The position numbers and the translations under genes are program-made. This document shows positions 3,876 through 63,840 of a stretch of DNA of 64,000 bases, piece after piece. Origin of the DNA: a virus. Lineage: Duplodnaviria > Heunggongvirae > Uroviricota > Caudoviricetes. The first letter of the stretch is position 1, and each line of letters begins with the position of its first letter. The stretch lies in IMG/VR virus record IMGVR_UViG_3300021387_000463, positions 107,001-171,000 of that record. The stretch is one strand, 5' to 3'. The notes under the pieces are model-generated. The model worked only from the letters and a program-made list of their open reading frames with translations. It was not told the DNA's origin and made no database searches.

Positions 3876-3909
3876 CAAAAAGGAATCTTGCAGCAATAGG
3901 TAAGACATC

Positions 3910-3979
3910 AGACATGTAGCTCAATGGTTAGAGCCTTGGATTTTACCAAGAGATTAGGGTTCGACTCCCTACGTATCTT
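3910..3979 (+). tRNA. tRNA-like with 6-nt anticodon loop auuuua (UUU or UUA)
   Basis: canonical D arm ta-gctc-aatggtta-gagc and T arm taggg/ttcgact/cccta; anticodon stem cttgg/ccaag encloses only 6 nt; acceptor has 1 mismatch. Confidence 0.35.
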
Positions 3980-4007
3980 TGTTTAAAAGGATTCCGATTT
4001 TTAACAT

Positions 4008-4360: not shown

Positions 4361-4487
4361 GGAAACATACAGCAACTATTAAAGGTATAGCATTAAACTG
4401 ATAATTTAAGGGTCGTTGGTTCGAGTCCAACTCACGCTACCAAGGTTGGCGTGATAGCTAAGATGGATAGAATGTTTCCGATTTTTT
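4361..4487 (+). ncRNA. permuted/split tRNA-Ile(GAT) unit inside a TACAGCAA element
   Basis: 5' ggaaacatacagcaa (4361-4375); D-stem 3' strand tagc; anticodon arm ttaaa/ctgataa/tttaa; variable gggtc; T arm gttgg/ttcgagt/ccaac; acceptor 3' tcacgct-a-CCA (4431-4441); 5-nt linker aggtt; acceptor 5' ggcgtga (4447-4453) + ta + D-stem 5' gcta; 3' aatgtttcc gattttttt (4468-4487). No matching 5' acceptor upstream in normal order. Confidence 0.4.
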
Positions 4488-5975: not shown

Positions 5976-6069
5976 GGGAACTTACAGCAAGGTTAAGAGG
6001 ATAATTTTTTATTTGTTCAAAATGAAAATAGATAGTTCGAGCCTATCAAATGATAGTTCCCTTTTTTTT
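5976..6069. repeat. TACAGCAA element copy with internal T-arm-like hairpin
   Basis: gggaacttacagcaa (5976-5990); hairpin gatag/ttcgagc/ctatc (6031-6047); complementary agttccc (6055-6061) + ttttttttt. Confidence 0.4.
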
Positions 6070-8722: not shown

Positions 8723-8869
8723 GGAAACATCCAGCAAATACAGAGTTGTTATTAGAAATTGCTACCGAAACGGTATGTGGGTTCGACTCCCACACGTCTA
8801 TCTTAACGAGGGCGTTGGTGAAATTGGTATACACGGCTATTGTAGAACAAAATGTTTCCGAATTTTTTT
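8723..8869. repeat. TACAGCAA element copy with internal T-arm hairpin
   Basis: ggaaacatccagcaa (8723-8737); internal gtggg/ttcgact/cccac; complementary atgtttcc (8852-8859) + gaatttttttat. Confidence 0.4.
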
Positions 8870-10095: not shown

Positions 10096-10274
10096 CGAAT
10101 GCGGTTCGAGTCCGCTTCAGTGACCGAGATTAGGTAAATTCAACAAAGCAGTGTTCGATTCTTGCTTATCTCCACACTATGAGTTTCCAATGTTAACTCG
10201 TGGGGATTATGGTTAAGTTGAGGTCAAAAAAACGGTGTATCTAGGATGCCCAGTTGCGCCTAGCTGCATCAGTA

Positions 10275-10430
10275 GGAACGTACAGCAACATTTACTTATT
10301 TAAAAGATTTTGTATTAGATTCGTAAATGAGGATAAGAGAAGCACTAAATCATAATTGCGAGGCACTTATCCATGCTCTTCGGAGCAAATGTCTAGTCAT
10401 GACAGTAAATTGACCGTTCCTTTTTCTTTT
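10275..10430. repeat. TACAGCAA element copy (no tRNA body)
   Basis: ggaacgtacagcaa (10275-10288) ... complementary cgttcc (10415-10420) + tttttctttt; interior has the UUCG hairpin gctc-ttcg-gagc. Confidence 0.35.
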
Positions 10431-10750
10431 GTCGCAATTGACACAAAACATAGTGGAAGCGTACAGCATGTACTTAATCATCTTGTTACTAACGATTGCT
10501 GATTTTAGAGGTTTCCAATTAAACACTTGCAAGGGCAACCAGTAAGCGTACCTCTCTAATCTTTAATCACACTAGGCAAAGGGTTGAGGTAACGTATTAC
10601 TCTTGTGAAGATAGTAGCAAAGGCATGTGAGTGTAGGATAGGCGAGAGACGTTGAAGCATCTTCGCAAGGAGTTGTGGAGTCAACCTTGAAATATCGCCC
10701 TCATCGTAATAGCTGAATCTCCAACTAGAATAAACCTACGCTTCCTTCAT

Positions 10751-12124: not shown

Positions 12125-12196
12125 AGTGGCGTAGTTCAGTGGTAGAGCACCTGTCTGTCTAACAGGGTGTCGTGGGTTCGAATCCCATCGTCACTG
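12125..12196 (+). tRNA. tRNA-Asp(GTC)
   Basis: anticodon stem cctgt/acagg with loop ctgtcta; acceptor agtggcg/cgtcact; T arm gtggg/ttcgaat/cccat. Confidence 0.6.
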
Positions 12197-12204
12197 CAAA
12201 ATAT

Positions 12205-12414: not shown

Positions 12415-12506
12415 GGATGCACGCTGCGAAGAGAAACATAGCAATATGCCTCTACGGAGAACGACGTGGAAATGCGATTCCGCAGGTTCGAATCCTGCTG
12501 CATCCA
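12415..12506 (+). tRNA. type-II-length tRNA-like (92 nt), anticodon unresolved
   Basis: perfect acceptor ggatgca/tgcatcc and T arm gcagg/ttcgaat/cctgc; body contains gaaacatagcaa, a TACAGCAA-motif variant. Confidence 0.35.
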
Positions 12507-12612
12507 CAAGTTTGTCTAGCTAGATTTGATATCGGTTGAAACTAGATGCCACACTTAAAGGTTTCTCTATAGTCCAAGGTAGAGAGTGAAAATGAATTGC
12601 TTGGGCGCATAT

Positions 12613-15817: not shown

Positions 15818-15951
15818 CGATGCTAGGAGAAGTCATACAATAGACGTACAGACGTAATTTTGTGTGGTGAGGAATCTAGAACAGAACATACTAGTCTGTA
15901 ATGGTATGCCAAAGGTTCAATATCAGGGAAGGTTACTTTGGATTTAATAGT

Positions 15952-16088
15952 GGGTACACACAGCAAGTATAAATTTACACTTCAAACAGACTGTCAATTT
16001 GTGTAACGTGGGTTCGATTCCCACCCCCTCCGCAAAGAGAATTAAATAAACTGGAGGGGTTGAAATGTTGGTTTTATGTACCCTTTTA
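15952..16088 (+). ncRNA. permuted/split tRNA-Asp(GTC) unit inside a TACAGCAA element
   Basis: 5' gggtacacacagcaa (15952-15966); D-stem 3' strand ttca; anticodon arm acaga/ctgtcaa/tttgt; T arm gtggg/ttcgatt/cccac; acceptor 3' cccctcc-g (16025-16032); 20-nt linker; acceptor 5' ggagggg (16053-16059) + D-stem 5' tgaa; complementary tgtaccc (16076-16082) + ttttat. Confidence 0.4.
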
Positions 16089-16161
16089 TGGCTCGATAGT
16101 TCAGTTGGTAAAATACTCGATTTGTAATCCTGAGTCCTCAGTTCGAATCTGGGTCGAGCCT
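16089..16161 (+). tRNA. tRNA-like, anticodon arm irregular (loop contains uuuguaa; TGT or GTA)
   Basis: perfect acceptor ggctcga/tcgagcc; T arm ctcag/ttcgaat/ctggg; D arm ta-gttc-agttggtaa. Confidence 0.4.
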
Positions 16162-16166
16162 CAAAC

Positions 16167-16293
16167 GGTGACGTAGCTCAGTCGGTAGAGCACTAAAAAA
16201 TCAACGTGTTGCCTCGTGTGCGCAACCCACAGCAAATATTATGATGAATGGCTGTTAACCAAGGGGTCTGTGGTTCGAGTCCACACGTCACCG
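16167..16293 (+). tRNA. oversized tRNA-like gene (127 nt) with ~75-nt insertion after the D arm
   Basis: perfect acceptor ggtgacg/cgtcacc; canonical D arm ta-gctc-agtcggta-gagc and T arm tgtgg/ttcgagt/ccaca; insertion carries gcgcaac-CCACAGCAA and gctgttaacc. Confidence 0.35.
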
Positions 16294-16299
16294 CAACTT

Positions 16300-16372
16300 G
16301 CCTCGTTAGCTCAGTTGGTAGAGCGATTCTGTGGTATGGAATAGGTCGTGGGTTCAAGTCCCTCACGTGGCT
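16300..16372 (+). tRNA. tRNA-Thr(GGT)
   Basis: anticodon stem attct/ggaat with loop gtggtat; same acceptor/D arm family as 15745. Confidence 0.5.
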
Positions 16373-18006: not shown

Positions 18007-18669
18007 ATGATAGCTGCTTTTGATACATATTATTATAATGGATATTCTTATACTGTAGCTGGAGTATTTAAGTCATGGAATGATAAAGATATTGCTTACT
18101 ATGCTACTAGTAAGAGGATGTGTATTGACGCAGAATACAAACCAGGAGAACTATATAAGCGTGAGCTTCCATGCATTATGCAATGTTTGGCATTATTACC
18201 ACTTAAGGATATTACGCTTATTATGGTAGATGGTTTTGTATGGCTTTCTGAGGATGGTAAAACCTTAACGAAGGGTTTGGGTGCTCACCTTCAAGATGCA
18301 ATCTTTAAGAAATATGGTGAGAAAATTACTGTTGTTGGTGTCGCAAAGAACAGATACCATGTAAATATACCAGATTGCTATGATATAGAGCGTGGTTTGG
18401 AATCAGCAAAGCCATTGTTTGTAACATGTAGTGAACACTGTCTTGCAGAACATTATTCAAACATGGTCAAGATTATGTATGGTGATTATAGAATACCAAA
18501 AATCTTGAAAGATGTAGACACTAGGACAAGAGAACTTGGGCATGAACATTCTGAGGAGATAGAAGCAGAACTTGAAAAAGAATATAACTCCAAACCCATA
18601 GATATATCAATTGGTGATTTTGATGAATTTATGGCAACTTGTGAAAAAAATGGTTTTAAATATAGATAG
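18007..18669 (+). CDS. nfi: endonuclease V (deoxyinosine 3' endonuclease; also cuts inosine-containing RNA)
   Basis: RELP, MVDGFVW, GLGAHL and VVGVAKNR align with E. coli Nfi blocks REYP, FVDGHGI, GVASHFG and IGVAKKR. Confidence 0.6.
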   Translation: MIAAFDTYYYNGYSYTVAGVFKSWNDKDIAYYATSKRMCIDAEYKPGELYKRELPCIMQCLALLPLKDITLIMVDGFVWLSEDGKTLTKGLGAHLQDAIFKKYGEKITVVGVAKNRYHVNIPDCYDIERGLESAKPLFVTCSEHCLAEHYSNMVKIMYGDYRIPKILKDVDTRTRELGHEHSEEIEAELEKEYNSKPIDISIGDFDEFMATCEKNGFKYR

Positions 18670-21088: not shown

Positions 21089-21230
21089 GGAAACAGACAG
21101 CAATGGTTATTTTTTTAATAAGCCTTGTAAGCAGTGGGTCATGGGTTCGAATCCCATCGAGGGGTGTAAGCTCCTTGTAGCTCAGTCTGGTCTAGAGCAA
21201 CTTAAAATGTTAAAAACGTTTCCGATTTTT
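21089..21230 (+). ncRNA. permuted/split tRNA-like unit inside a TACAGCAA element
   Basis: 5' ggaaacagacagcaa; T arm atggg/ttcgaat/cccat; acceptor 3' cgagggg-t; 5-nt linker gtaag; acceptor 5' ctccttg (all 7 pair, 2 G-U) + complete D arm ta-gctc-agtctggtcta-gagc; 3' acgtttcc gattttt. Confidence 0.35.
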
Positions 21231-21248
21231 AATTAAAACGAAATAACA

Positions 21249-21809
21249 ATGGCAGTAGGTGTAATTATCGCAAGGCTTCAGCCAATACACAAGGGACACC
21301 TTGAGTTGGTCAGACAAGCTCTTAATGAGAATGACGAGGTTCTTATCCTTGTTGGTTCAGCAGACAAACTGAATAAGCGTAACCCAATTCCTATCGCAAT
21401 GCGTTTGGATTTGGCAAAGAGAGCAATAACTGAGGAGTTTGGTGAGGGCGCTGGCAAAGTTAAAGTAATGCCACTCAATGACCTTACAGATGAATCAGAT
21501 AATTCTCATGATTGGGGATTTTATCTCTACAGCCATATAGTTGGAATCACTAAGTCACTTGAATTTACCATTTATTATTCAGATGGATTTGAGATTATCA
21601 TGCAGTGGTTTCCTCCATTCATTACAAGAGACTTCGTTTCTTTTAAATTGAATGCTAGAGGTGCAATCCACAACAACTTGTCTGCAACAAAGGTAAGACA
21701 GATGATTCTCAAGGGTGATGAAAATGCTCTCGCAGAGGCAGTACCAACTTGTGTTGCTGAAAATGCGGTAATATTGAAACATTTCATTGAAGCATTTCAA
21801 GATGTATGA
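21249..21809 (+). CDS. nadM: nicotinamide/nicotinate mononucleotide adenylyltransferase (NadM-type NMNAT)
   Basis: ARLQPIHKGHLELV = (H/T)xGH nucleotidyltransferase motif in the archaeal/phage NMNAT context GRFQPxHKGH. Confidence 0.6.
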   Translation: MAVGVIIARLQPIHKGHLELVRQALNENDEVLILVGSADKLNKRNPIPIAMRLDLAKRAITEEFGEGAGKVKVMPLNDLTDESDNSHDWGFYLYSHIVGITKSLEFTIYYSDGFEIIMQWFPPFITRDFVSFKLNARGAIHNNLSATKVRQMILKGDENALAEAVPTCVAENAVILKHFIEAFQDV

Positions 21810-22237: not shown

Positions 22238-22780
22238 CAAAACATAATGGGCTTGAATGGTATAGAACGTTATGCGTCTGGTAAAGGACAAGCAGTGGGC
22301 ATACACTTCAAATAGCAAAAAAAACAAACGCAGAGAACGTAGATTCTCCTGCTTATGAGTACGCTATAGCTGCGTAAGCATGAGCCGAGAGGCTAGGCTC
22401 TTAGGAACAGAACATCCTAGCAAACTTTTTTTAGCTTCGTGCTAGATGGTGGAATCGGTGACTCTAGTCATCCCCCAAGTTTTCCTTGTTTTCTCAAAAT
22501 AAGGTGGCGGATTTTCGACAGCAATGTCAACTTTCCAATTTAAGCTTGTATAATCCTTTATGGGATGGTAATTGTGACGAGGGTTCGAATCCCTCCAGGT
22601 CCACTTAATAATCAGTCAGGGTTGGATGATGAAGTAAACTTTTACAGTAAAGTTATGCTATATTAGGATAAAAGTCATGTATTAATCTGTATAACATACA
22701 TGGAAGGGAATCTTTCATAAGTACATTGAAGAGGTTCGTGTAGCTGATTATTTTATAAAAGAAAAAAAGTTCTTTGAAAA

Positions 22781-23088: not shown

Positions 23089-23332
23089 TGAAAAAAAGTT
23101 CCTAAAAAATTTGGAATTCTCGAAAATTATCTATATCTTTGCAAAGTGAAAAGAAATAAATGAGGAAACTAACAGCAAACATTTAAACATCAAACTGTAA
23201 ATTTGAACAACGTTTAAAAAGTTTCCGTTTTATTATATAACATAGCGGCAGAGTGAAACAGATTACACGCTAGGCTCATAACCTAGAAACACCAAGTGCG
23301 ACTCTTGCGTGCCGCCACTTGATTTGGAAGAT

Positions 23333-23617: not shown

Positions 23618-24440
23618 AACATTGTAGGCTTCGGCTGAAAATGAGGAGTTTGGCTAGCTTTCGTAGCCAAATGAAGGATAATCCAGTGATGGGACTAAAT
23701 GTGATGTGAAATTGACCATAGTAGCATTGCAGATATGTAGGGGCAACCCTATGTATTTCACTGAAAAGCATATGGCACGGTCTACGCTGGGGGTAACACC
23801 CTAGGCGTAGGTTCTCAAGGGCTGAATGTCTTTGAGTGAGTGGTAACACAATAGATTGCCATATGGAACTCGATGCAATAGTCACCAGTTGGCGTGTTGG
23901 GTTCAGTTATATGCTAGTCTCAAGTTGAAATGCTTGAGAACCGTAAGGCTGATAGTATGTAATAGCAATTGGACTTGTGGTGAGTCTTTGTAGGGAGGCG
24001 ATTTCGTGGGTCGTGCTCAAAAGGCACGAATGCGATGGGTCGCACCTCGTCTTCCAATGGTCGTGCAAATTTCCAAAATTTGATTTGAAATATGGTTCAA
24101 ATGTTTATTTAGCAAAAGTGTGCGACACTAGGCAGCTAAAATGCACTTATCCTTCTGCAATATGAAGGGGTTGGGGACTCGCAAGGAATCCAACAAGAGA
24201 GTAAAAGTACTCGTCTGAGTCAACAGGAGGCATCCTGTGAATCCGCAAGAGCTTGGCGAAGAACTGAAATCTATGATGCTGTACCGAAAGGTTTAAACTA
24301 GTAAGTGTTTGGTTGTTTTCGCAAAACCTCCGTGCATGGTGTCTACGGCTATCGTAAGGTAGCGTGTGAACAGCAACGTCCAACCGTTGTGAAATGACAT
24401 CTACAACAAGACAATGTTCTCAGTCTTTTGTTTTTACATA

Positions 24441-24564
24441 GGGAGTTAGCTTAATGGTCAGAGTAATTTTGTTGCGATTTAAGCTACAACACAGTCTCGA
24501 CTTCGGAACAGATTGATGCTTTAACTGATAATGAAAAAATGGTGGTTCGAGTCCATCACTCCCT
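24441..24564 (+). tRNA. oversized tRNA-like gene (124 nt)
   Basis: acceptor gggagtt/cactccc (6/7); T arm ggtgg/ttcgagt/ccatc; body contains ctgataa (Ile-type loop) and a UUCG hairpin. Confidence 0.3.
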
Positions 24565-24725
24565 GCGTACCGTTTTGGGGCACTTTTTGAGTAAACAAAG
24601 TGTTAAACTTTGGCACTAGATAGCTACTAGGTGTTATGGGTTGGAAAGTTTGAATCCCTTGGGGGTTTGTAGAATGTAATGTTTTTAACCAACTGTTTTT
24701 GATACGGCTTAATATTTAATTATAT

Positions 24726-25616: not shown

Positions 25617-25677
25617 AGGAAGCTTACAGCAATGTAAAAAGACCGCAACTCTTGGCCTAAGACTAGCTTCCGATTTT
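25617..25677. repeat. TACAGCAA element, minimal copy (no tRNA body)
   Basis: ggaagcttacagcaa ... complementary agcttcc + gattttt. Confidence 0.4.
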
Positions 25678-27141: not shown

Positions 27142-27226
27142 GGGCATATGGCTGAGTGGTCGATAGCGGCAGTCTCTAAAACTGTTATGGCGAAAGTCAT
27201 CGTGGGTTCGAATCCTACTATGCTCA
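27142..27226 (+). tRNA. amber suppressor tRNA, anticodon CTA, type II (Ser/Leu/Tyr-like body)
   Basis: acceptor gggcata/tatgctc all paired; D arm tg-gctg-agtggtcgata-gcgg; anticodon stem gcagt/actgt with loop ctctaaa at the expected position; long variable arm; T arm gtggg/ttcgaat/cctac. Confidence 0.5.
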
Positions 27227-27454
27227 CTACGGCTGGTGTATCCATAGTGGATGCTGAAATAAGTGAGACAGCGCAAGCCATGTAAGAAGTGGCAGATGAA
27301 GCAGCAATGCGGTGCGAGGATTAGTCCCTTGCCCTAGTTCCTTGATGGTTAAGAGGATACCTTCATGGTTGATACAGGTAAACCTAATTTACTATTATGA
27401 TAGAATATCTCAAAAAATTAGAAGCAACGATGTGCAAGCATAAATGGGAGGATT

Positions 27455-28729: not shown

Positions 28730-29158
28730 ATGGCAAAAGAGAAAGTTACAATAAAGTATAAAACAGCTAATACATTTGCTGACATCTTCAATGATAAGAG
28801 TGGCACCTTCTATGAGGTGTTCTTAAAACCAACAAAGGGAAATACAGTTAAGAGATATTTGGCTATGGGAACAATAAGTTCTTATGGTGATAGAAGATGT
28901 GTATGCCAATGCTACTCAAAGGTTGGACGACCAGTTTTTAGTTGGTACAATGGCATAAAATCTTTTGAAGTCAATAAGGATGCTGAGAAAGGTTTAGAGA
29001 TAACATCTGCAAAGGTTCAGTGCGACTATCACCTTTACACGGCATATGTCTCAAGGGAAGATGCTTTTCATGCAGCCATGCATGGTCTTAAGTTACAGAA
29101 ACTTAAGATTAACAAGCAAATTATCAAGTTACAGAACGATTTATATTCAGAAGAATAA
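28730..29158 (+). CDS. hypothetical protein (142 aa)
   Basis: ORF. Confidence 0.5.
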   Translation: MAKEKVTIKYKTANTFADIFNDKSGTFYEVFLKPTKGNTVKRYLAMGTISSYGDRRCVCQCYSKVGRPVFSWYNGIKSFEVNKDAEKGLEITSAKVQCDYHLYTAYVSREDAFHAAMHGLKLQKLKINKQIIKLQNDLYSEE

Positions 29159-29649
29159 TGGAGATAGAAGAATTAGCAAAGAGAGTGGCAATAGCCTTAA
29201 TGGATAAGAACTATAAGATTGCTACTGCTGAAGAATGTACAGCTGGGTTGATTGGTGCTGCAATTGCAAGCCAAGACTATGCTCAGAGGTGGTACAAGGG
29301 TACAGTTGTGGCATACGATGAAACAATCGCTTGCAAGGTTCTTGATGTCCAAGACTATACCATTAAGAGAAATGACTTTGTTAGTCCTCAAGTGGTTAGT
29401 CAGATGGCTTTGACAACACTGTATAAGTTTGATGTTAACGTAGCCCTTGCTATCACTGGTTATGTAGATGGATATGGAAGCACGGATATTCCAGCTGGTG
29501 ATGTTCAAATATGTGTTGCTAGACTTGTCAACAAATCAGTGTCATTTAGCTATAAGAAGGTAAGAGTTAAGAACAAAGAGAGAGGTAAGAACATTGAGGA
29601 AGCAATCAAGGAGTCTCTTATCCTCATAATGGAAACAATAGTAGGGTAG
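29158..29649 (+). CDS. pncC: CinA C-terminal domain protein / NMN deamidase (PncC-like)
   Basis: KIATAEECTAGLIGAAIAS matches the conserved CinA_C block (..ATAESCTGGL..). Confidence 0.55.
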   Translation: MEIEELAKRVAIALMDKNYKIATAEECTAGLIGAAIASQDYAQRWYKGTVVAYDETIACKVLDVQDYTIKRNDFVSPQVVSQMALTTLYKFDVNVALAITGYVDGYGSTDIPAGDVQICVARLVNKSVSFSYKKVRVKNKERGKNIEEAIKESLILIMETIVG

Positions 29650-33069: not shown

Positions 33070-33208
33070 GTGCGGTTCGTCTAGTGGTTTAGGACAACGT
33101 TTAAAAAAGTTTTTTAACGTTTCCGTTAGGAAATAGACAGCAGATGTATTATTGAAAAATTATGCATTCCAAGCCGTAAACAGAGGTTCGAATCCTTTAC
33201 CGCACTCT
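33070..33208 (+). tRNA. oversized tRNA-like gene (139 nt), paralog of 32641 with ~85-nt insertion
   Basis: perfect acceptor gtgcggt/accgcac; same D arm tc-gtc-tagtggtttag-gac; insertion has the palindrome aacgtttaaaaaagttttttaacgtt and hairpin tttcc-gtta-ggaaa followed by TAGACAGCAG. Confidence 0.3.
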
Positions 33209-40021: not shown

Positions 40022-40141
40022 TTAGGGGATAGTGTAATGGTAACACGCTGTAATTTCCGTTACCTTTGAGGTAACATTACAGCAATCATTAGGAAAATAG
40101 CTTTTGGTGCCAGTATTGGAGGTTCGAATCCTTCTCCCCTA
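40022..40141 (+). tRNA. oversized tRNA-Gln(TTG)-like gene (120 nt) with insertions flanking the anticodon arm
   Basis: perfect acceptor tagggga/tccccta; D arm ta-gtg-taatggtaa-cac; anticodon arm gttac/ctttgag/gtaac; preceded by gtaatttccg and followed by ATTACAGCAA; T arm ggagg/ttcgaat/ccttc. Confidence 0.35.
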
Positions 40142-40148
40142 GCAAACA

Positions 40149-40235: not shown

Positions 40236-40344
40236 AGGGAACTTACAGCAAGTATAACTCGTGAAGGAATGGTCTACTTGAAAGTCTAAAAAACTTTTGC
40301 GCAGTTTGCGCTTGTGGGTTCGAATCCCACCGAAAATCAGTTCC
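40236..40344. repeat. TACAGCAA element copy abutting the CCA end; internal T-arm hairpin
   Basis: gggaacttacagcaa (40236-40250); gtggg/ttcgaat/cccac; complementary agttccc (40338-40344). Confidence 0.35.
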
Positions 40345-40859
40345 CTAACTTATACTTAACCATAAGGTTTTAAGTTTTTGTATTATTTTATTTTTATCGA
40401 AAGGAGCATCCAGCAATGGGTGCTCTGATTTTTTATGCAACTTGATGTAAATCAAAGGTCTGATATAAATCAAGATTGAGCGTGATTTTTATGTTTTTTC
40501 TTGGAATATTTTGGGTATTTGAGTTTTTTTTAATATCTTTGCATCGTTAATCAAAAACAGTGTGTTCGCACACAACTTAAATTGACATAGGTCAAATAGT
40601 GGTTAGTTTTTCATAAAAAATGCATTTTGAATGATTGACATTGTGGCGTTTGGTTATATATATTAAATGAAGTGCAAGACCAAATGTATGAGCAACGGCT
40701 TGGGAAATCAATAGTCTAGGCTAATTTGTAAGTAAGTGCATTGTGGTTGGGTATCGGTTAAAATTGGAGGAAGTAAGTGTACCGATTTCGGCCACAATTA
40801 ATTAAAAGTGAGAAGTAAGTAAAATAAGTAAGTGTAAAATTAAAGAAAGGGAAATTATT

Positions 40860-41513: not shown

Positions 41514-42077
41514 ATGGATAAGAAATTGGTTAACCAGCCTTGTTATGACAAAGAAGGCAATTTTATCGGATGGTTTAGCCGTTCAATGGCAGCAGCAATC
41601 TTCATCTATTGTAGAGACAAAGATGGCGATTGGTGCGTTCTTGCGTCAGAGCGAGGCGAGGAAGCTGCTGACTTTAGAGGTTTTTGGAATTGCACATGCG
41701 GTTACTTGGATTTTGGGGAAACCACCAAGGATTGCGCAATGAGGGAGCTGTATGAGGAAACTGGACTACTCATAGATGAAAAGCTAGTCAAGTTTGTGGC
41801 TTATGAGGATAGTCCAGAGGCGAATAAGCAGAATGTTACATTCCGTTTTGCAGCATTCATCGATGACGCAATTACAGACGAATTTACCTTCTCTAAAAAG
41901 CACAATGAGGGTAAGGAAGTAGGAGAAATCAAATGGATTAAGATATCAGACGTGGACAAATACATGTGGGCATTTAACCATGACAAAAGAATAAAAGAGA
42001 TTTTTGCAACTAGGGAAAAGAAACTTTCTTGGGTTGACAAAGTAAAACGTTTCATTGGCAAATTTCTTAAAAAATGA
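41514..42077 (+). CDS. Nudix hydrolase (ADP-ribose pyrophosphatase-like)
   Basis: Nudix box GYLDFGETTKDCAMRELYEETGL. Confidence 0.65.
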   Translation: MDKKLVNQPCYDKEGNFIGWFSRSMAAAIFIYCRDKDGDWCVLASERGEEAADFRGFWNCTCGYLDFGETTKDCAMRELYEETGLLIDEKLVKFVAYEDSPEANKQNVTFRFAAFIDDAITDEFTFSKKHNEGKEVGEIKWIKISDVDKYMWAFNHDKRIKEIFATREKKLSWVDKVKRFIGKFLKK

Positions 42078-57186: not shown

Positions 57187-58581
57187 ATGGAAATATTCAA
57201 AGACGAAAGAATAAAGAAAGTCTTAGCGAAGATTCAGAATGCCATTAAACTGACTGCCTTTGAGGGGCATGTTTATGTGGTTGGTGGTGCGGTGAGAGAC
57301 GCACTGTTGAACCTTCCAGTCAAGGACTTGGATTTCGTGGTAGAGATACCTAATGGTGGAGTAATGCTTGCCCATCTTCTTGCTTCAAAGGAGAAGTGTT
57401 ATGTGATGGGTAAGAATCCAGTAATATTCGAGACCTATGGTACTGCAAAGCTGAATCTCTTTAAGGATGAAGACCTCAAAGACTTTGACCTTGAATTCGT
57501 TCAGACTAGAAAGGAGCAGTATCACAAGGAGAGCAGAAACCCAGATACAGTGTTTGGTTCAATCGAGGAAGATGCAGCACGTAGGGACTTAACCATTAAC
57601 TCATTGTACTACAATGTTACTGATGGTAAGTTGTACGATTTCAACCAAGGTGTTGATGACTTGGTTAACCAAGTGATTAAGACCCCAACTGACCCAGATG
57701 TTATCTTTGACGATGACCCACTACGTATCTTGAGAGTTATCAGATTCTCTTGCAGATATGGCTGGGGTATCGAGAAGAACACTTGGTTGGGCATGGTTAA
57801 GAATGCACATCGTATCAAGATTATCTCACAAGAGAGAATCACTGATGAGATTTCCAAGATTATAACTGGTCCAAACGCTTCTGTTGGTATCCGCAAGATG
57901 TTGTTCTGTGGCATCTTGAATAGGGTAATGCCAGACATCTACGACTTAACCAACGCATATGAATCAAAGAATCCAATGCTTACCTCATTTGACCACACAA
58001 TGTTAGTTCTTGATAAGGTACAGCCTTATATTGAGAATAGACTTGCTGCATTGTTTCATGATGTAGGTAGAATCGCAACTGAGGGAAATAGGGGTATCTC
58101 TCAAGATTCATTCAGTGCTGATGTTGCTAGCTGTGACTTGAAAGCGATGAAATTCCCAAAGAATATTATCAATTCTGTTGAGAACGCAATCAAATATCAC
58201 AGATTCTTCAGAAACTACGCTGATGGCACTGTTCCACCAGACAAGAAGATAAGAAAGTTTATCAACGAGTGTGGTGACAACATTGGAAACGTGGTTGACT
58301 TGATGAATGCTAACAACTTGTATCAGACCTACGATAAGAAGAAGAGACAAGTATTGGATATTCTGAATAGAATTGAAGAGCTAGATGAGCTTGAAGAGGC
58401 TAAGAACGTTAAGCTGCCTATCGATGGAAAAGATTTAATGGCAGAATTTAATCTTAAAAGTGGCCCTCAGATTGGTATACTCATGGAACACTTGAAAGAG
58501 GCTTATTTCGAGAATCCGAAGATTACCAAGGAAGAGTGCTTCAAGTTGGTTGAGGATAAGATTAAAGTCTTGGCAGTCTAA
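57187..58581 (+). CDS. cca: CCA-adding enzyme (tRNA nucleotidyltransferase, class II) with HD domain
   Basis: VVGGAVRDALLNLPVKDLDFVV head-domain motif; RDLTINSLYY; HD motif LFHDVGR. Confidence 0.7.
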   Translation: MEIFKDERIKKVLAKIQNAIKLTAFEGHVYVVGGAVRDALLNLPVKDLDFVVEIPNGGVMLAHLLASKEKCYVMGKNPVIFETYGTAKLNLFKDEDLKDFDLEFVQTRKEQYHKESRNPDTVFGSIEEDAARRDLTINSLYYNVTDGKLYDFNQGVDDLVNQVIKTPTDPDVIFDDDPLRILRVIRFSCRYGWGIEKNTWLGMVKNAHRIKIISQERITDEISKIITGPNASVGIRKMLFCGILNRVMPDIYDLTNAYESKNPMLTSFDHTMLVLDKVQPYIENRLAALFHDVGRIATEGNRGISQDSFSADVASCDLKAMKFPKNIINSVENAIKYHRFFRNYADGTVPPDKKIRKFINECGDNIGNVVDLMNANNLYQTYDKKKRQVLDILNRIEELDELEEAKNVKLPIDGKDLMAEFNLKSGPQIGILMEHLKEAYFENPKITKEECFKLVEDKIKVLAV

Positions 58582-62646: not shown

Positions 62647-63840
62647 ATGATTTATAGTATACTCGATTCAGACCTCTATAAATTTACGATGTCTAATGCT
62701 TATTTTCAGTTGTATCCTGATGCTGAAGGTACGTTTGCTTTTAATGACCGTAACAATGAGGTTTATGACAAGAAGTTCTTGGAAATGCTTCAATTAGAGT
62801 TCGCTCGTCTTTGTGAACTTAAGTTGACAACGGAAGAGTACATGTATGTGTCTCAGATTCGTTTTTTAGCAACCAACTACACTGAGTGGTTGAAGAACTT
62901 TAAGTTTGAGTTTGACAAGATTAAGTTCTGGCTCGATGACGAGGGACATCTTCACATTGAGGTAACTGACAAGATGTATAAGGTAACTCTTTACGAAGTA
63001 CCTATCCTTGCCACAGTTGCCGAGTGTCGTAACAAGTGGCTTGGTGTACACATTGATAATGCAAGGGTGATTGAAATCCTCGATAAGAAGATTGACTTTG
63101 CCAATGAGCATCAGTTGTATTTCTCTGAATTCGGTACAAGACGTAGAGCTTCTGCTGCAAGTCATGACCTCATTGTAAGACGTTTGAAGGAGCGTTGCCC
63201 AATCTATTGCGTTGGTACATCCAATGTGTATTTGGCAATGAAGTATAACATGATGCCTAGTGGAACTTGCGCACATGAGTGGATTATGTTCCACGCTGGT
63301 ATTGGCGGTTTTAAGACTGCTAACCTCACAGCCCTTAACGATTGGATTAAGGTGTATCAAGGTGACTTGGGTATTTCGTTGATTGATACCTATACCACAG
63401 CTTCATATCTCCACACACTTACGCTTAAGCAAGCTAAGTTGCTTGATGGCTTCCGTCAAGACAGTGGTGATGAATACCGCATCGGTAACATGATTATCGA
63501 TAAGCTGCATGAAATGCGCATCGACCCAACAAGCAAGACCATTGTCTTCAGCAATGCGCTTAACTTTGAGAAGTATGCTGAGATTGCTCGTTACTTTAAG
63601 GGACGCATCAAGGTATCCGCTGGTATTGGTACAAACCTTACTTGTGACCTTGGTATTGATGGCTACAAGCCAGCCAATATCGTGATGAAACTCGCTAAAT
63701 GCCGTTACAGTCCTCGTGATTTCTGGGAGTATGTCATCAAGATTTCCGATGACCTTGGAAAGCACATGGGTCGTAAAGACCTATTCGACATTGCTGCCAA
63801 GGAGTTGCACTTTGAAGAGCTTGGTGTTAAAGTAAATTAA
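62647..63840 (+). CDS. pncB: nicotinate phosphoribosyltransferase (NAPRTase, PncB-like)
   Basis: N-terminal ILDSDLYKFTM and C-terminal SAGIGTNLTCD are NAPRTase family hallmarks. Confidence 0.6.
   Translation: MIYSILDSDLYKFTMSNAYFQLYPDAEGTFAFNDRNNEVYDKKFLEMLQLEFARLCELKLTTEEYMYVSQIRFLATNYTEWLKNFKFEFDKIKFWLDDEGHLHIEVTDKMYKVTLYEVPILATVAECRNKWLGVHIDNARVIEILDKKIDFANEHQLYFSEFGTRRRASAASHDLIVRRLKERCPIYCVGTSNVYLAMKYNMMPSGTCAHEWIMFHAGIGGFKTANLTALNDWIKVYQGDLGISLIDTYTTASYLHTLTLKQAKLLDGFRQDSGDEYRIGNMIIDKLHEMRIDPTSKTIVFSNALNFEKYAEIARYFKGRIKVSAGIGTNLTCDLGIDGYKPANIVMKLAKCRYSPRDFWEYVIKISDDLGKHMGRKDLFDIAAKELHFEELGVKVN

Follow-up and report, generated by a model that had tools for sequence, protein, structure and literature searches.

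The DNA analysed here (the window) is a 64,000-nucleotide (nt) stretch, positions 107,001-171,000 of the Caudoviricetes record IMGVR_UViG_3300021387_000463, and looks like a piece of a large phage. All genes of the window are carried on the + strand. ARAGORN called 44 transfer RNAs (tRNAs) and one transfer-messenger RNA (tmRNA), and open reading frames (ORFs) for HNH and DUF559 endonucleases are scattered through the tRNA array. In this study, we analysed a unit at 15952-16088, which encodes a circularly permuted RNA with the shape of tRNA-Asp(GUC), the back half of the tRNA lying ahead of the front half. An original prediction, made from the sequence alone, had listed the parts of this permuted tRNA, and every one of them, including the fully complementary acceptor strands, was found where it had been placed. 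The parts are as follows, in genomic order.

15952-15958 (+): 5' strand of the terminal (clamp) helix (strand B), GGGTACA; 7 of 7 pairs with 16077-16083
15961-15966 (+): single-stranded motif CAGCAA, 2 nt (ca) 3' of the helix strand
15967-15980 (+): AU-rich spacer (y) of 14 nt, differing in length and sequence among homologues
15981-15984 (+): 3' strand of the D stem, ttca, partner of 16061-16064; followed by a single a
15986-16002 (+): anticodon arm acaga/ctgtcaa/tttgt, with the anticodon GTC at 15993-15995
16003-16007 (+): variable loop gtaac
16008-16024 (+): T arm gtggg/ttcgatt/cccac, to which the partial Rfam matches align
16025-16031 and 16032 (+): 3' strand of the acceptor stem, cccctcc, and discriminator G; the strand is complementary to 16053-16059 at 7 of 7 positions
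16033-16052 (+): AU-rich linker of 20 nt that closes the acceptor stem; CCA is not encoded
16053-16059 (+): 5' strand of the acceptor stem, ggagggg
16060 (+): U8 (t), the lone connector nucleotide
16061-16064 (+): 5' strand of the D stem, tgaa
16065-16076 (+): 5' part of the D loop, atgttggtttta, with G18G19
16077-16083 (+): 3' strand of the terminal (clamp) helix (strand A), TGTACCC
16084-16089 (+): U-rich tail ttttat; the next tRNA (Thr) begins at 16090

The fold is a cloverleaf in which the acceptor stem is closed by the linker, the D loop is open, and the ends are clamped by the helix of 7 base pairs (bp). In genomic order, no tRNA was called at 15952-16088 by ARAGORN or by Rfam, which was run at the gathering threshold on the window and at an expectation value (E) of ≤10 on 15820-16300. 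When the unit was de-permuted by re-joining its halves in the D loop, ARAGORN called tRNA-Asp(gtc) at 50 of the 63 junctions. The re-joined halves form a full cloverleaf with a 7-bp acceptor stem, the T loop TTCGATT, the D-loop GG and a 7-nt anticodon loop with U33. G73 of the unit agrees with what we take to be the identity rule for bacterial tRNA-Asp. One feature, common to the whole Asp-type body, is atypical of a working tRNA, namely the single nucleotide between the acceptor and D stems. The same Rfam runs showed no ribozyme, intron or Y RNA at the unit; its sole matches were partial and were to the permuted tmRNA models RF04321 (19.8 bits, gathering threshold 47) and RF01850 (25.2 bits, gathering threshold 84). 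A canonical tRNA-Asp(gtc), whose presence from 12125 had also been predicted, lies separately at 12125-12197.

Homologues were searched for in viral contigs using a pattern composed of the T loop and a D-arm string. Asp-type units in the same permuted order were found on 29 viral contigs of 47-410 kilobases (kb), and the string TTGAAATGTTGG (within 16060-16076), which was part of the search pattern, is common to all 29 loci. One of these contigs, L128 (409 kb, IMGVR_UViG_3300028048_000038; L numbers denote related contigs and loci), is nearly identical to the window. Eleven diverse copies were aligned (alignment A1) over five helices: terminal, D, anticodon, T and the linker-split acceptor helix. 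All 27 base pairs were retained, with 291 of 291 cells paired; slid-partner controls were paired at 41-54%. Eleven pairs were altered on both sides, and none of 500 shuffles reached the observed values. Such two-sided changes occurred in three pairs of the clamp helix (GGGTACA, GGAAACA, AGAATAC), three pairs of the anticodon stem and four pairs of the acceptor stem, which has 7 bp in all 11 copies. The D and T stems were also paired in all 11. The linker and the spacers drift fast while the stems stay, as seen by comparing the window with L132 and L058. This contrast, together with the covariation of the stems, rules out both chance and a pseudogene in decay. The permuted tRNA-Asp(GUC), with a D-loop break bridged by a terminal helix as proposed in the original prediction, is therefore kept in homologues with compensatory changes, which is the opposite of the loss of pairing by which the proposal was to be judged.

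The anticodons GTC, GTT, GTG and GTA all occur on the one Asp-type body, and we take these to be the four queuosine-type GUN anticodons. The discriminator base tracks the anticodon: G73 was found with GTC and GTT, A73 with GTG, and mostly A73 with GTA. The His-type copies lack G-1/C73, which is atypical for working tRNAs.

The clamp helix and CAGCAA belong to a module that recurs throughout the window. The module consists of a helix strand of 6-9 bp, 1-3 nt, CAGCA(A/G), a cargo and the complementary strand, usually followed by G and a U/A-rich run. The window holds about 12 open units and 3-4 hairpin-closed units with this module, that is, about 15 recurrences. The flanking element proposed as shared by the Ile and Asp units is indeed common to both, but the proposal was too narrow, as the module recurs both in the window and, in hundreds of units, on other phage contigs. 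Since the unit finder was keyed on [CAT]AGCA[AG], finding the motif in the detected units is to some extent built in. ACAGCAA has 26 occurrences in the window where 10.8 would be expected, and 25 of the 26 are on the + strand. The helix sequence varies by unit and by clade while its complementarity is kept (GGGTACA, GGAAACAT, AGGAACG, GGAAGCT, AGAATAC, GTTTACT). For the same reason, we rejected the idea that the module represents inverted repeats of a mobile element at the DNA level. Pairing of CAGCA with UGUUG of the D loop, as in the minimum-energy fold, was rejected because the Ile, Thr and bottom-half units described below have no such partner. Pairing between the two spacers was also rejected, since the AU-rich matches were at chance level only. 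The units of the window are as follows.

4361-4479: permuted Ile(GAT) unit, with the D-loop break 3' of GG and the same plan as the Asp unit
21089-21223: permuted Thr(TGT) unit, broken between positions 29 and 30 of the anticodon stem
8723-8859 and 12430-12568: two units with T arms and permuted-order tRNA parts, framed by the helix and CAGCAA
2412-2489, 23164-23226, 25618-25671, 5976-6061 and 40236-40346: short units whose cargo is an anticodon-arm-like hairpin (e.g. tcaaa-ctgtaaa-tttga, GTA) or an anticodon arm and a T arm
3882-3995: normal-order tRNA-Lys(TTT) inside the module (GGAATCTT g CAGCAA ... AGGATTCC gattttt); called 'tRNA-???' by ARAGORN at 3910-3979
10274-10421: module-framed RNA without tRNA features, of a kind about 130-175 nt long; also L094 13667-13805 and L024 4030-4204 (both minus strand)
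10456-10746: unit of 291 nt (GGAAGCGTA CAGCAt ... TACGCTTCC); also L094 13841-14060 (minus strand)
16167-16293: tRNA-Asn(GTT) with a closed-hairpin module
33070-33206: tRNA-Gly(TCC) with a closed-hairpin module, interrupted at 29/30
40023-40142: tRNA-Gln(TTG) with a closed-hairpin module, the sole Gln(UUG) gene of the window

The Asp and Ile units share the design and the break point that had been predicted for them, as both open in the D loop 3' of GG at the same position to within a few nt. The D-loop break is not the only one, since 29/30 of the anticodon stem also serves as a break point; besides the Thr unit, permuted tRNAs broken at 29/30, including Gly and others, were found elsewhere. 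None of the units at 4361-4479, 8723-8859, 12430-12568 and 21089-21223 was called by ARAGORN.

The insert of about 50-70 nt splits the 5' strand of the anticodon stem in the Asn, Gly and Gln tRNAs. It begins and ends with a spacer, and between these lie a closed hairpin and CAGCA(A/G), in that order. The hairpin of the Asn insert covaries between the window (GTTGC/GCAAC) and L128 (GTTAC/GTAAC). For tRNA-Gly(TCC) split at 29/30, the window has the hairpin form and L024 the permuted one. Therefore, the hairpin and permuted topologies are interchangeable in evolution. Several other inserts were seen. A tRNA-Ile(GAT)-like gene at 24440-24565 carries an insert of about 55 nt without CAGCAA, in which GTTG...CAAC precedes ACAGTC; this may represent either a diverged module or an insert of another kind. 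On the minus strands of related contigs, tRNAs have inserts of about 80-105 nt in the anticodon loop (...ctgt|atacgg...; L089 10094-10269, 10379-10556 and 2740-2890; L008 611-771), and since they lack the CAGCAA module, they appear to be a different kind of tRNA intron. A hairpin of the window tmRNA (AAAAT...ATTTT followed by cga CAGCAA, 22496-22530) was considered as a module and rejected, because it aligns to a low-confidence linker of a normal-sized tmRNA and is probably a coincidence.

The module also frames RNAs that are not complete tRNAs. The most numerous class in other contigs is made up of bottom halves, which consist of a short D stem and the anticodon arm alone (e.g. AGC-a-TCAAA-CTTTTAA-TTTGA-caac-GCT). 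Lys-UUU loops (CTTTTAA) are the commonest among them, and their anticodon stems vary between copies with pairing kept. Bottom halves can never be aminoacylated. The RNA at 10274-10421 is conserved among three phage contigs. The cargo of the unit at 10456-10746 includes gtgtaggataggcgagagacgttgaag...caaccttgaaatatcgccctcat and had no Rfam match; to our eye it closely recalls the L1-stalk region (helices 76-78) of 23S ribosomal RNA, and by this analogy the unit may be a mimic of the binding site of ribosomal protein L1.

When viral contigs were scanned with one helix variant, 119 loci were obtained, of which about 25 had the complementary strand at the right distance. In 1.27 megabases (Mb) of fetched loci, 197 candidate units were found, some of them expected by chance, with lengths in two groups of 55-93 and 110-165 nt. 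CAGCAA recurred among clades with wholly different helix sequences, partly by construction as the finder required the motif, and a G or U-rich tail followed strand A in most units. No homologue of the Asp or Ile unit was found in GenBank phages, where nothing close to this region of the window was found either. Across 185,579 GTDB species genomes, units of the permuted size were absent and short units gave only four matches, in metagenome-assembled genomes. These results indicate that the element is essentially confined to phage contigs, those of uncultivated phages.

ORFs near the unit arrays were clustered to find partner proteins. In a clade of phages of about 180 kb, a protein of 600 amino acids (Pfam DUF2828/DUF7788, with a DxSxS motif) is encoded directly upstream of the unit arrays. 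It is plentiful in phage contigs of this size, and one cluster contains 2,499 member sequences. By sequence, it had no match in PDB, and sequence searches were uninformative. An AlphaFold model (mean confidence score, pLDDT, 71.7) was compared with known folds, and the six best PDB matches were all Ro60 (E 2e-7 to 8e-6) over about 590 aligned columns, the full length of the protein. The model thus predicts that this phage protein, which lies next to homologous Asp-type units, has the Ro60 fold. The gene for the predicted Ro60-fold (TROVE and vWA) protein lies at 7051-8851 of L123 and in 52 further loci (L150-L202), and is followed by a DUF7873 gene. We anchored a search on this Ro-like gene only and fetched 53 loci with 41-99% identity, which contained 188 module units on the gene strand and nine on the opposite strand. 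An Asp-type permuted unit lies 2-6 kb downstream in 18 of the 26 close-clade loci, and in diverged loci (L191, L177) tandem units start just past the stop codon of the Ro-like gene. This layout matches the one by which Y RNAs were found, that is, at most 4 kb from Ro60 on the same strand (Chen et al. 2014, PMC4201824). The surroundings of the Ro-like gene also include tmRNAs larger than normal (490-570 nt) and two RAGATH elements, a RAGATH-34 RNA and a RAGATH-1 hammerhead ribozyme. Y RNAs have a stem formed by their ends, the short 5' motif GNCGAAN0-1G and a tRNA-like domain (PMC4201824). The Ro60 of the Thermus phage phiLo binds the phage-encoded Y-like RNAs Yrl1/2 (PMC12135203), and for jumbo phages, TROVE proteins accompanied by a tRNA-like partner are on record (PMC7824862).

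We tentatively favour reading the unit as a Y-RNA-like mimic of a tRNA in two pieces, with an acceptor end that RNase P opens and that then receives CCA, and with the module as a protein handle. Such a mimic is at least as likely as a contiguous tRNA. The transcript would fold as an L-shaped tRNA body, which fits since the D-loop GG is kept only in units with a T arm. RNase P would cleave 5' of G1, and 3' trimming and CCA addition would then remove the linker and open the acceptor end. The resulting tRNA-like RNA would have two pieces, kept together by base pairing in the acceptor stem, D stem and clamp helix. The clamp helix and CAGCAA may act as a handle for a common protein, as the Ro60-binding stem and the 5' motif do in Y RNAs, and the best candidate for this protein would be the Ro60-like protein. 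In the resulting ribonucleoprotein, the RNA may serve as a tRNA mimic or a spare tRNA, and the likely setting is a phage-host conflict over tRNA cleavage and repair. The Lys-UUU loops, the GUN set and the Gln-UUG loop presumably resemble targets of anticodon nucleases, which we regard as a lead and not as a result. The proposed maturation has precedent, because YrlA of M. smegmatis and two-piece tmRNA mature in this way and the phage encodes a CCA-adding enzyme. The M. smegmatis YrlA has a 7-bp closed acceptor stem that is cut by RNase P RNA in vitro, and it is cleaved and carries CCA in vivo (PMC4201824). The partial Rfam matches of the unit also count in favour of the mimic, as they are solely to permuted tmRNA models with the same order of T arm, acceptor 3' strand, linker and acceptor 5' strand. 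Moreover, the module frames bottom halves, a normal-order tRNA-Lys and non-tRNA RNAs and occurs as a hairpin within tRNAs, which fits a common trans-acting binder better than a dedicated tRNA splice signal.

Several observations weigh against a Y-RNA-like mimic. A hidden Markov model search found no Ro60-like ORF in the 64-kb window or in window-type loci, and the scan for the Ro-like gene returned no window-type contig. The Ro-like gene itself lies inside big tRNA/tmRNA arrays, so its adjacency to the units may reflect only a shared 'RNA region'. The motif of the units is CAGCAA and not GNCGAAN0-1G. No YrlA match was obtained from Rfam at the gathering threshold in the Ro-anchored loci scanned, and the nearest match to the YrlA model RF02553 (17.8 bits against a threshold of 69, E 0.48) covers the tRNAs at 16105-16218 and not the unit. 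In addition, the module lies at 29/30 of otherwise perfect tRNAs, including the sole Gln(UUG), where it should block decoding, which argues for its removal. Finally, the tracking of the anticodon by the discriminator suggests a real aminoacylation identity over mere mimicry.

The last two points lead to splicing, a possible account that we regard with some doubt. Here, the helix and CAGCAA would form a new, protein-dependent tRNA intron, and the permuted precursor would be circularised, then opened, and end as a contiguous tRNA-Asp. An endonuclease would cut both exon borders in the D loop, a ligase would join ...AUGUUGG(N0-5) to UUCAAACAGA, and RNase P and 3' processing would open the linker. 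The de-permuted sequence is a good tRNA, and the same module is found as a closed hairpin within the otherwise canonical Asn, Gly(TCC) and Gln(TTG) tRNAs, with the Asn hairpin covarying between orthologues. The presence of both topologies of the Gly(TCC) split at 29/30 (window and L024) suggests that they are functionally equivalent, a retained insertion at this site should be incompatible with decoding, and the discriminator follows the anticodon across the Asp-type family. On the other hand, there is no bulge-helix-bulge at the borders, and the spacers between helix and exon range from 0 to 20 nt, so that a ruler measured from the helix is unlikely. We know of no splicing endonuclease in bacteria or phages. 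Scans of the window ORFs with Pfam, PHROGs and NCBIfam detected no ligase or other RNA-joining enzyme, no splicing endonuclease and no TROVE domain, six-frame translations of 1.27 Mb of related loci contained no RtcB signature motif, and no known ribozyme in Rfam matched the region. Splicing is also opposed by the module enclosing cargo that needs none (bottom halves, the normal-order tRNA, non-tRNA RNAs), by the absence of G-1/C73 from His-type members and by the one nucleotide between the acceptor and D stems of the Asp-type body. We consider it rather doubtful that the phages have a protein-dependent tRNA splicing and circularisation pathway of their own, free of bulge-helix-bulge, with the module as a small mobile tRNA intron of D loops and anticodon stems; just as doubtful is its corollary that removal of the module irrespective of topology would have let tRNA genes become permuted repeatedly. 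A group I or II intron, or a permuted intron-exon arrangement, was rejected, as no model matches and flanks of only 133 nt upstream and 30 nt downstream are not long enough.

Neither a dedicated ribonucleoprotein nor ligation would be needed if the module were a generic processing or stability cassette, a leader-trailer duplex that is discarded to leave a nicked, two-piece tRNA-Asp. The helix would in places be a terminator with its U run, and nucleases would enter at CAGCAA and at the AU-rich spacers. This account, which is unlikely, is consistent with the framing of every kind of cargo, including a normal-order tRNA (3882-3995) that RNase P would free anyway, with the G and U/A-rich run that usually follows the 3' helix strand, with the AU-rich, unconserved spacers, and with the Bacteroidota-type promoter boxes (TTTG ... 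TAnnTTTG) ahead of several units. However, the next tRNA begins 6 nt after the U run, leaving no room for a promoter, so the helix is not an efficient terminator here, and prediction on the + strand gave neither an intrinsic terminator nor a sigma-70 promoter. The closed hairpin inside tRNAs has no end-forming role, and the recurrence of CAGCAA across clades with unlike helices, even if the finder required the motif, points to specific recognition. A promoter and terminator as the full explanation of the module was rejected, because its strands covary, so that both are in the RNA, and because of the same 6-nt gap. It is also highly improbable that the unit is non-functional debris, a tRNA-Asp gene whose order was broken up by recombination, in an array with many homing endonucleases. 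The interspersed HNH and DUF559 ORFs and the canonical tRNA-Asp(GTC) already present at 12125-12197 would fit such an origin, but 29 contigs keep the permuted order and the family has diversified to GTC, GTT, GTG and GTA on one body. The covariation further contradicts debris: 11 pairs show compensatory change and no stem is broken, whereas the linker and the spacers have drifted.

Other genes of the window relevant to translation, RNA processing and NAD (nicotinamide adenine dinucleotide) metabolism are as follows.

22249-22604: tmRNA of the normal type, phage-encoded
57187-58581: CCA-adding enzyme
27142-27227: amber-suppressor-type tRNA with the anticodon CTA, labelled Pyl by ARAGORN
21249-21809, 29158-29649, 41514-42077 and 62647-63840: ORFs of an NAD-salvage set (cytidylyltransferase-like protein, CinA, Nudix, NAPRTase)
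18007-18669: endonuclease V-like ORF

The cytidylyltransferase-like protein may be a nicotinamide mononucleotide adenylyltransferase. The CTA tRNA, the tmRNA, the CCA-adding enzyme and the NAD-salvage set are together in keeping with a phage armed for conflict over translation and over NAD. The cluster of the endonuclease V-like protein, also present in L122 and three other loci, adjoins the tRNA/unit arrays of window-type phages. Endonuclease V enzymes are able to cleave inosine-containing RNA, and this ORF is a candidate RNA-processing factor. The hosts are probably Bacteroidota, because promoter boxes of the Bacteroidota type lie upstream of several units.

In the literature that we searched, permuted tRNA genes came from a few algae and archaea only, and the tRNA-mimicking Y RNAs lacked anticodon arms. 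In this study, we found that anticodon-bearing permuted tRNAs form a large, conserved family in big uncultivated phages, with one module shared with hairpin-interrupted tRNAs and anticodon-arm-only RNAs. As standard tRNA finders miss such units, the tRNA repertoires of phages are under-counted. The module implies a dedicated trans-acting factor whether it is retained or removed. If this factor were the Ro60-like protein, the units would represent an expanded Ro/Y-RNA system built on real tRNA bodies, which would likely counter host nucleases that cut tRNA. If the module were spliced out, a categorically new RNA-processing pathway in bacteria would be implied. Both ideas can be tested on the family, which has a definite sequence signature and numerous natural variants.

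No description of permuted tRNA genes in phages or bacteria was found in the literature searched. The unit family is apparently undescribed, and it departs in at least one defining feature from each of three known systems: YrlA RNAs, the permuted tRNAs of algae and archaea, and two-piece tmRNA. In overall plan, the unit resembles YrlA-type Y RNAs (RF02553; PMC4201824, PMC12135203). Both have a stem formed by the ends with a short motif just 3' of its 5' strand, and both have a permuted tRNA-like domain composed of the T arm, a loop-closed acceptor stem and D-arm sequence. In both, the closed acceptor stem has 7 bp that RNase P can open for CCA, although for the unit this processing is only proposed. 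Several different RNAs of each type occur per genome, and in related phage clades the units lie a few kb downstream of a gene for a predicted Ro60-fold protein on the same strand. In contrast, YrlA has no anticodon arm and its ends exit at the anticodon-stem position, whereas the unit has a full GUC anticodon arm and G73, and its ends exit the D loop (29/30 in sister units). The motif CAGCAA is alike in position and kind but not in sequence to GNCGAAN0-1G, RF02553 does not match the unit, and no Ro60-like gene is visible in the window. The module of the unit also occurs as a hairpin within normal-order tRNAs.

Permuted tRNA genes reportedly occur in Cyanidioschyzon merolae, some green algae and archaea. 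As in the genes of the C. merolae type, the 3' half lies upstream of the 5' half on the same strand, a short linker spans the complementary acceptor ends, the transcript termini are paired, and one of the break points lies in the D loop. Intron-bearing and permuted versions coexist in both, as expected if permuted genes stem from tandem duplication of genes that bear introns. The C. merolae-type genes rely on a bulge-helix-bulge and on archaeal/eukaryal enzymes (splicing endonuclease and ligase), and a circular intermediate has been demonstrated for them. In contrast, the termini of the unit form a plain 7-bp helix without 3-nt bulges 4 bp apart, and this helix has unequal single-stranded flanks, one of 2 nt, CAGCAA and 14 nt and one of 0-12 nt. 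The setting of the unit is that of a bacterial phage, with a tmRNA and Bacteroidota-type promoters, and its conserved terminal element is different.

Two-piece tmRNA (RF04321, RF01850) provides a bacterial precedent for a permuted RNA, as it has the same order of T arm, acceptor 3' strand, intervening segment and acceptor 5' strand. Its intervening segment is excised, and the two pieces stay paired without ligation. The unit differs from it in having no tag frame or pseudoknots and only 30 nt after the acceptor 5' strand, and in carrying an anticodon arm.

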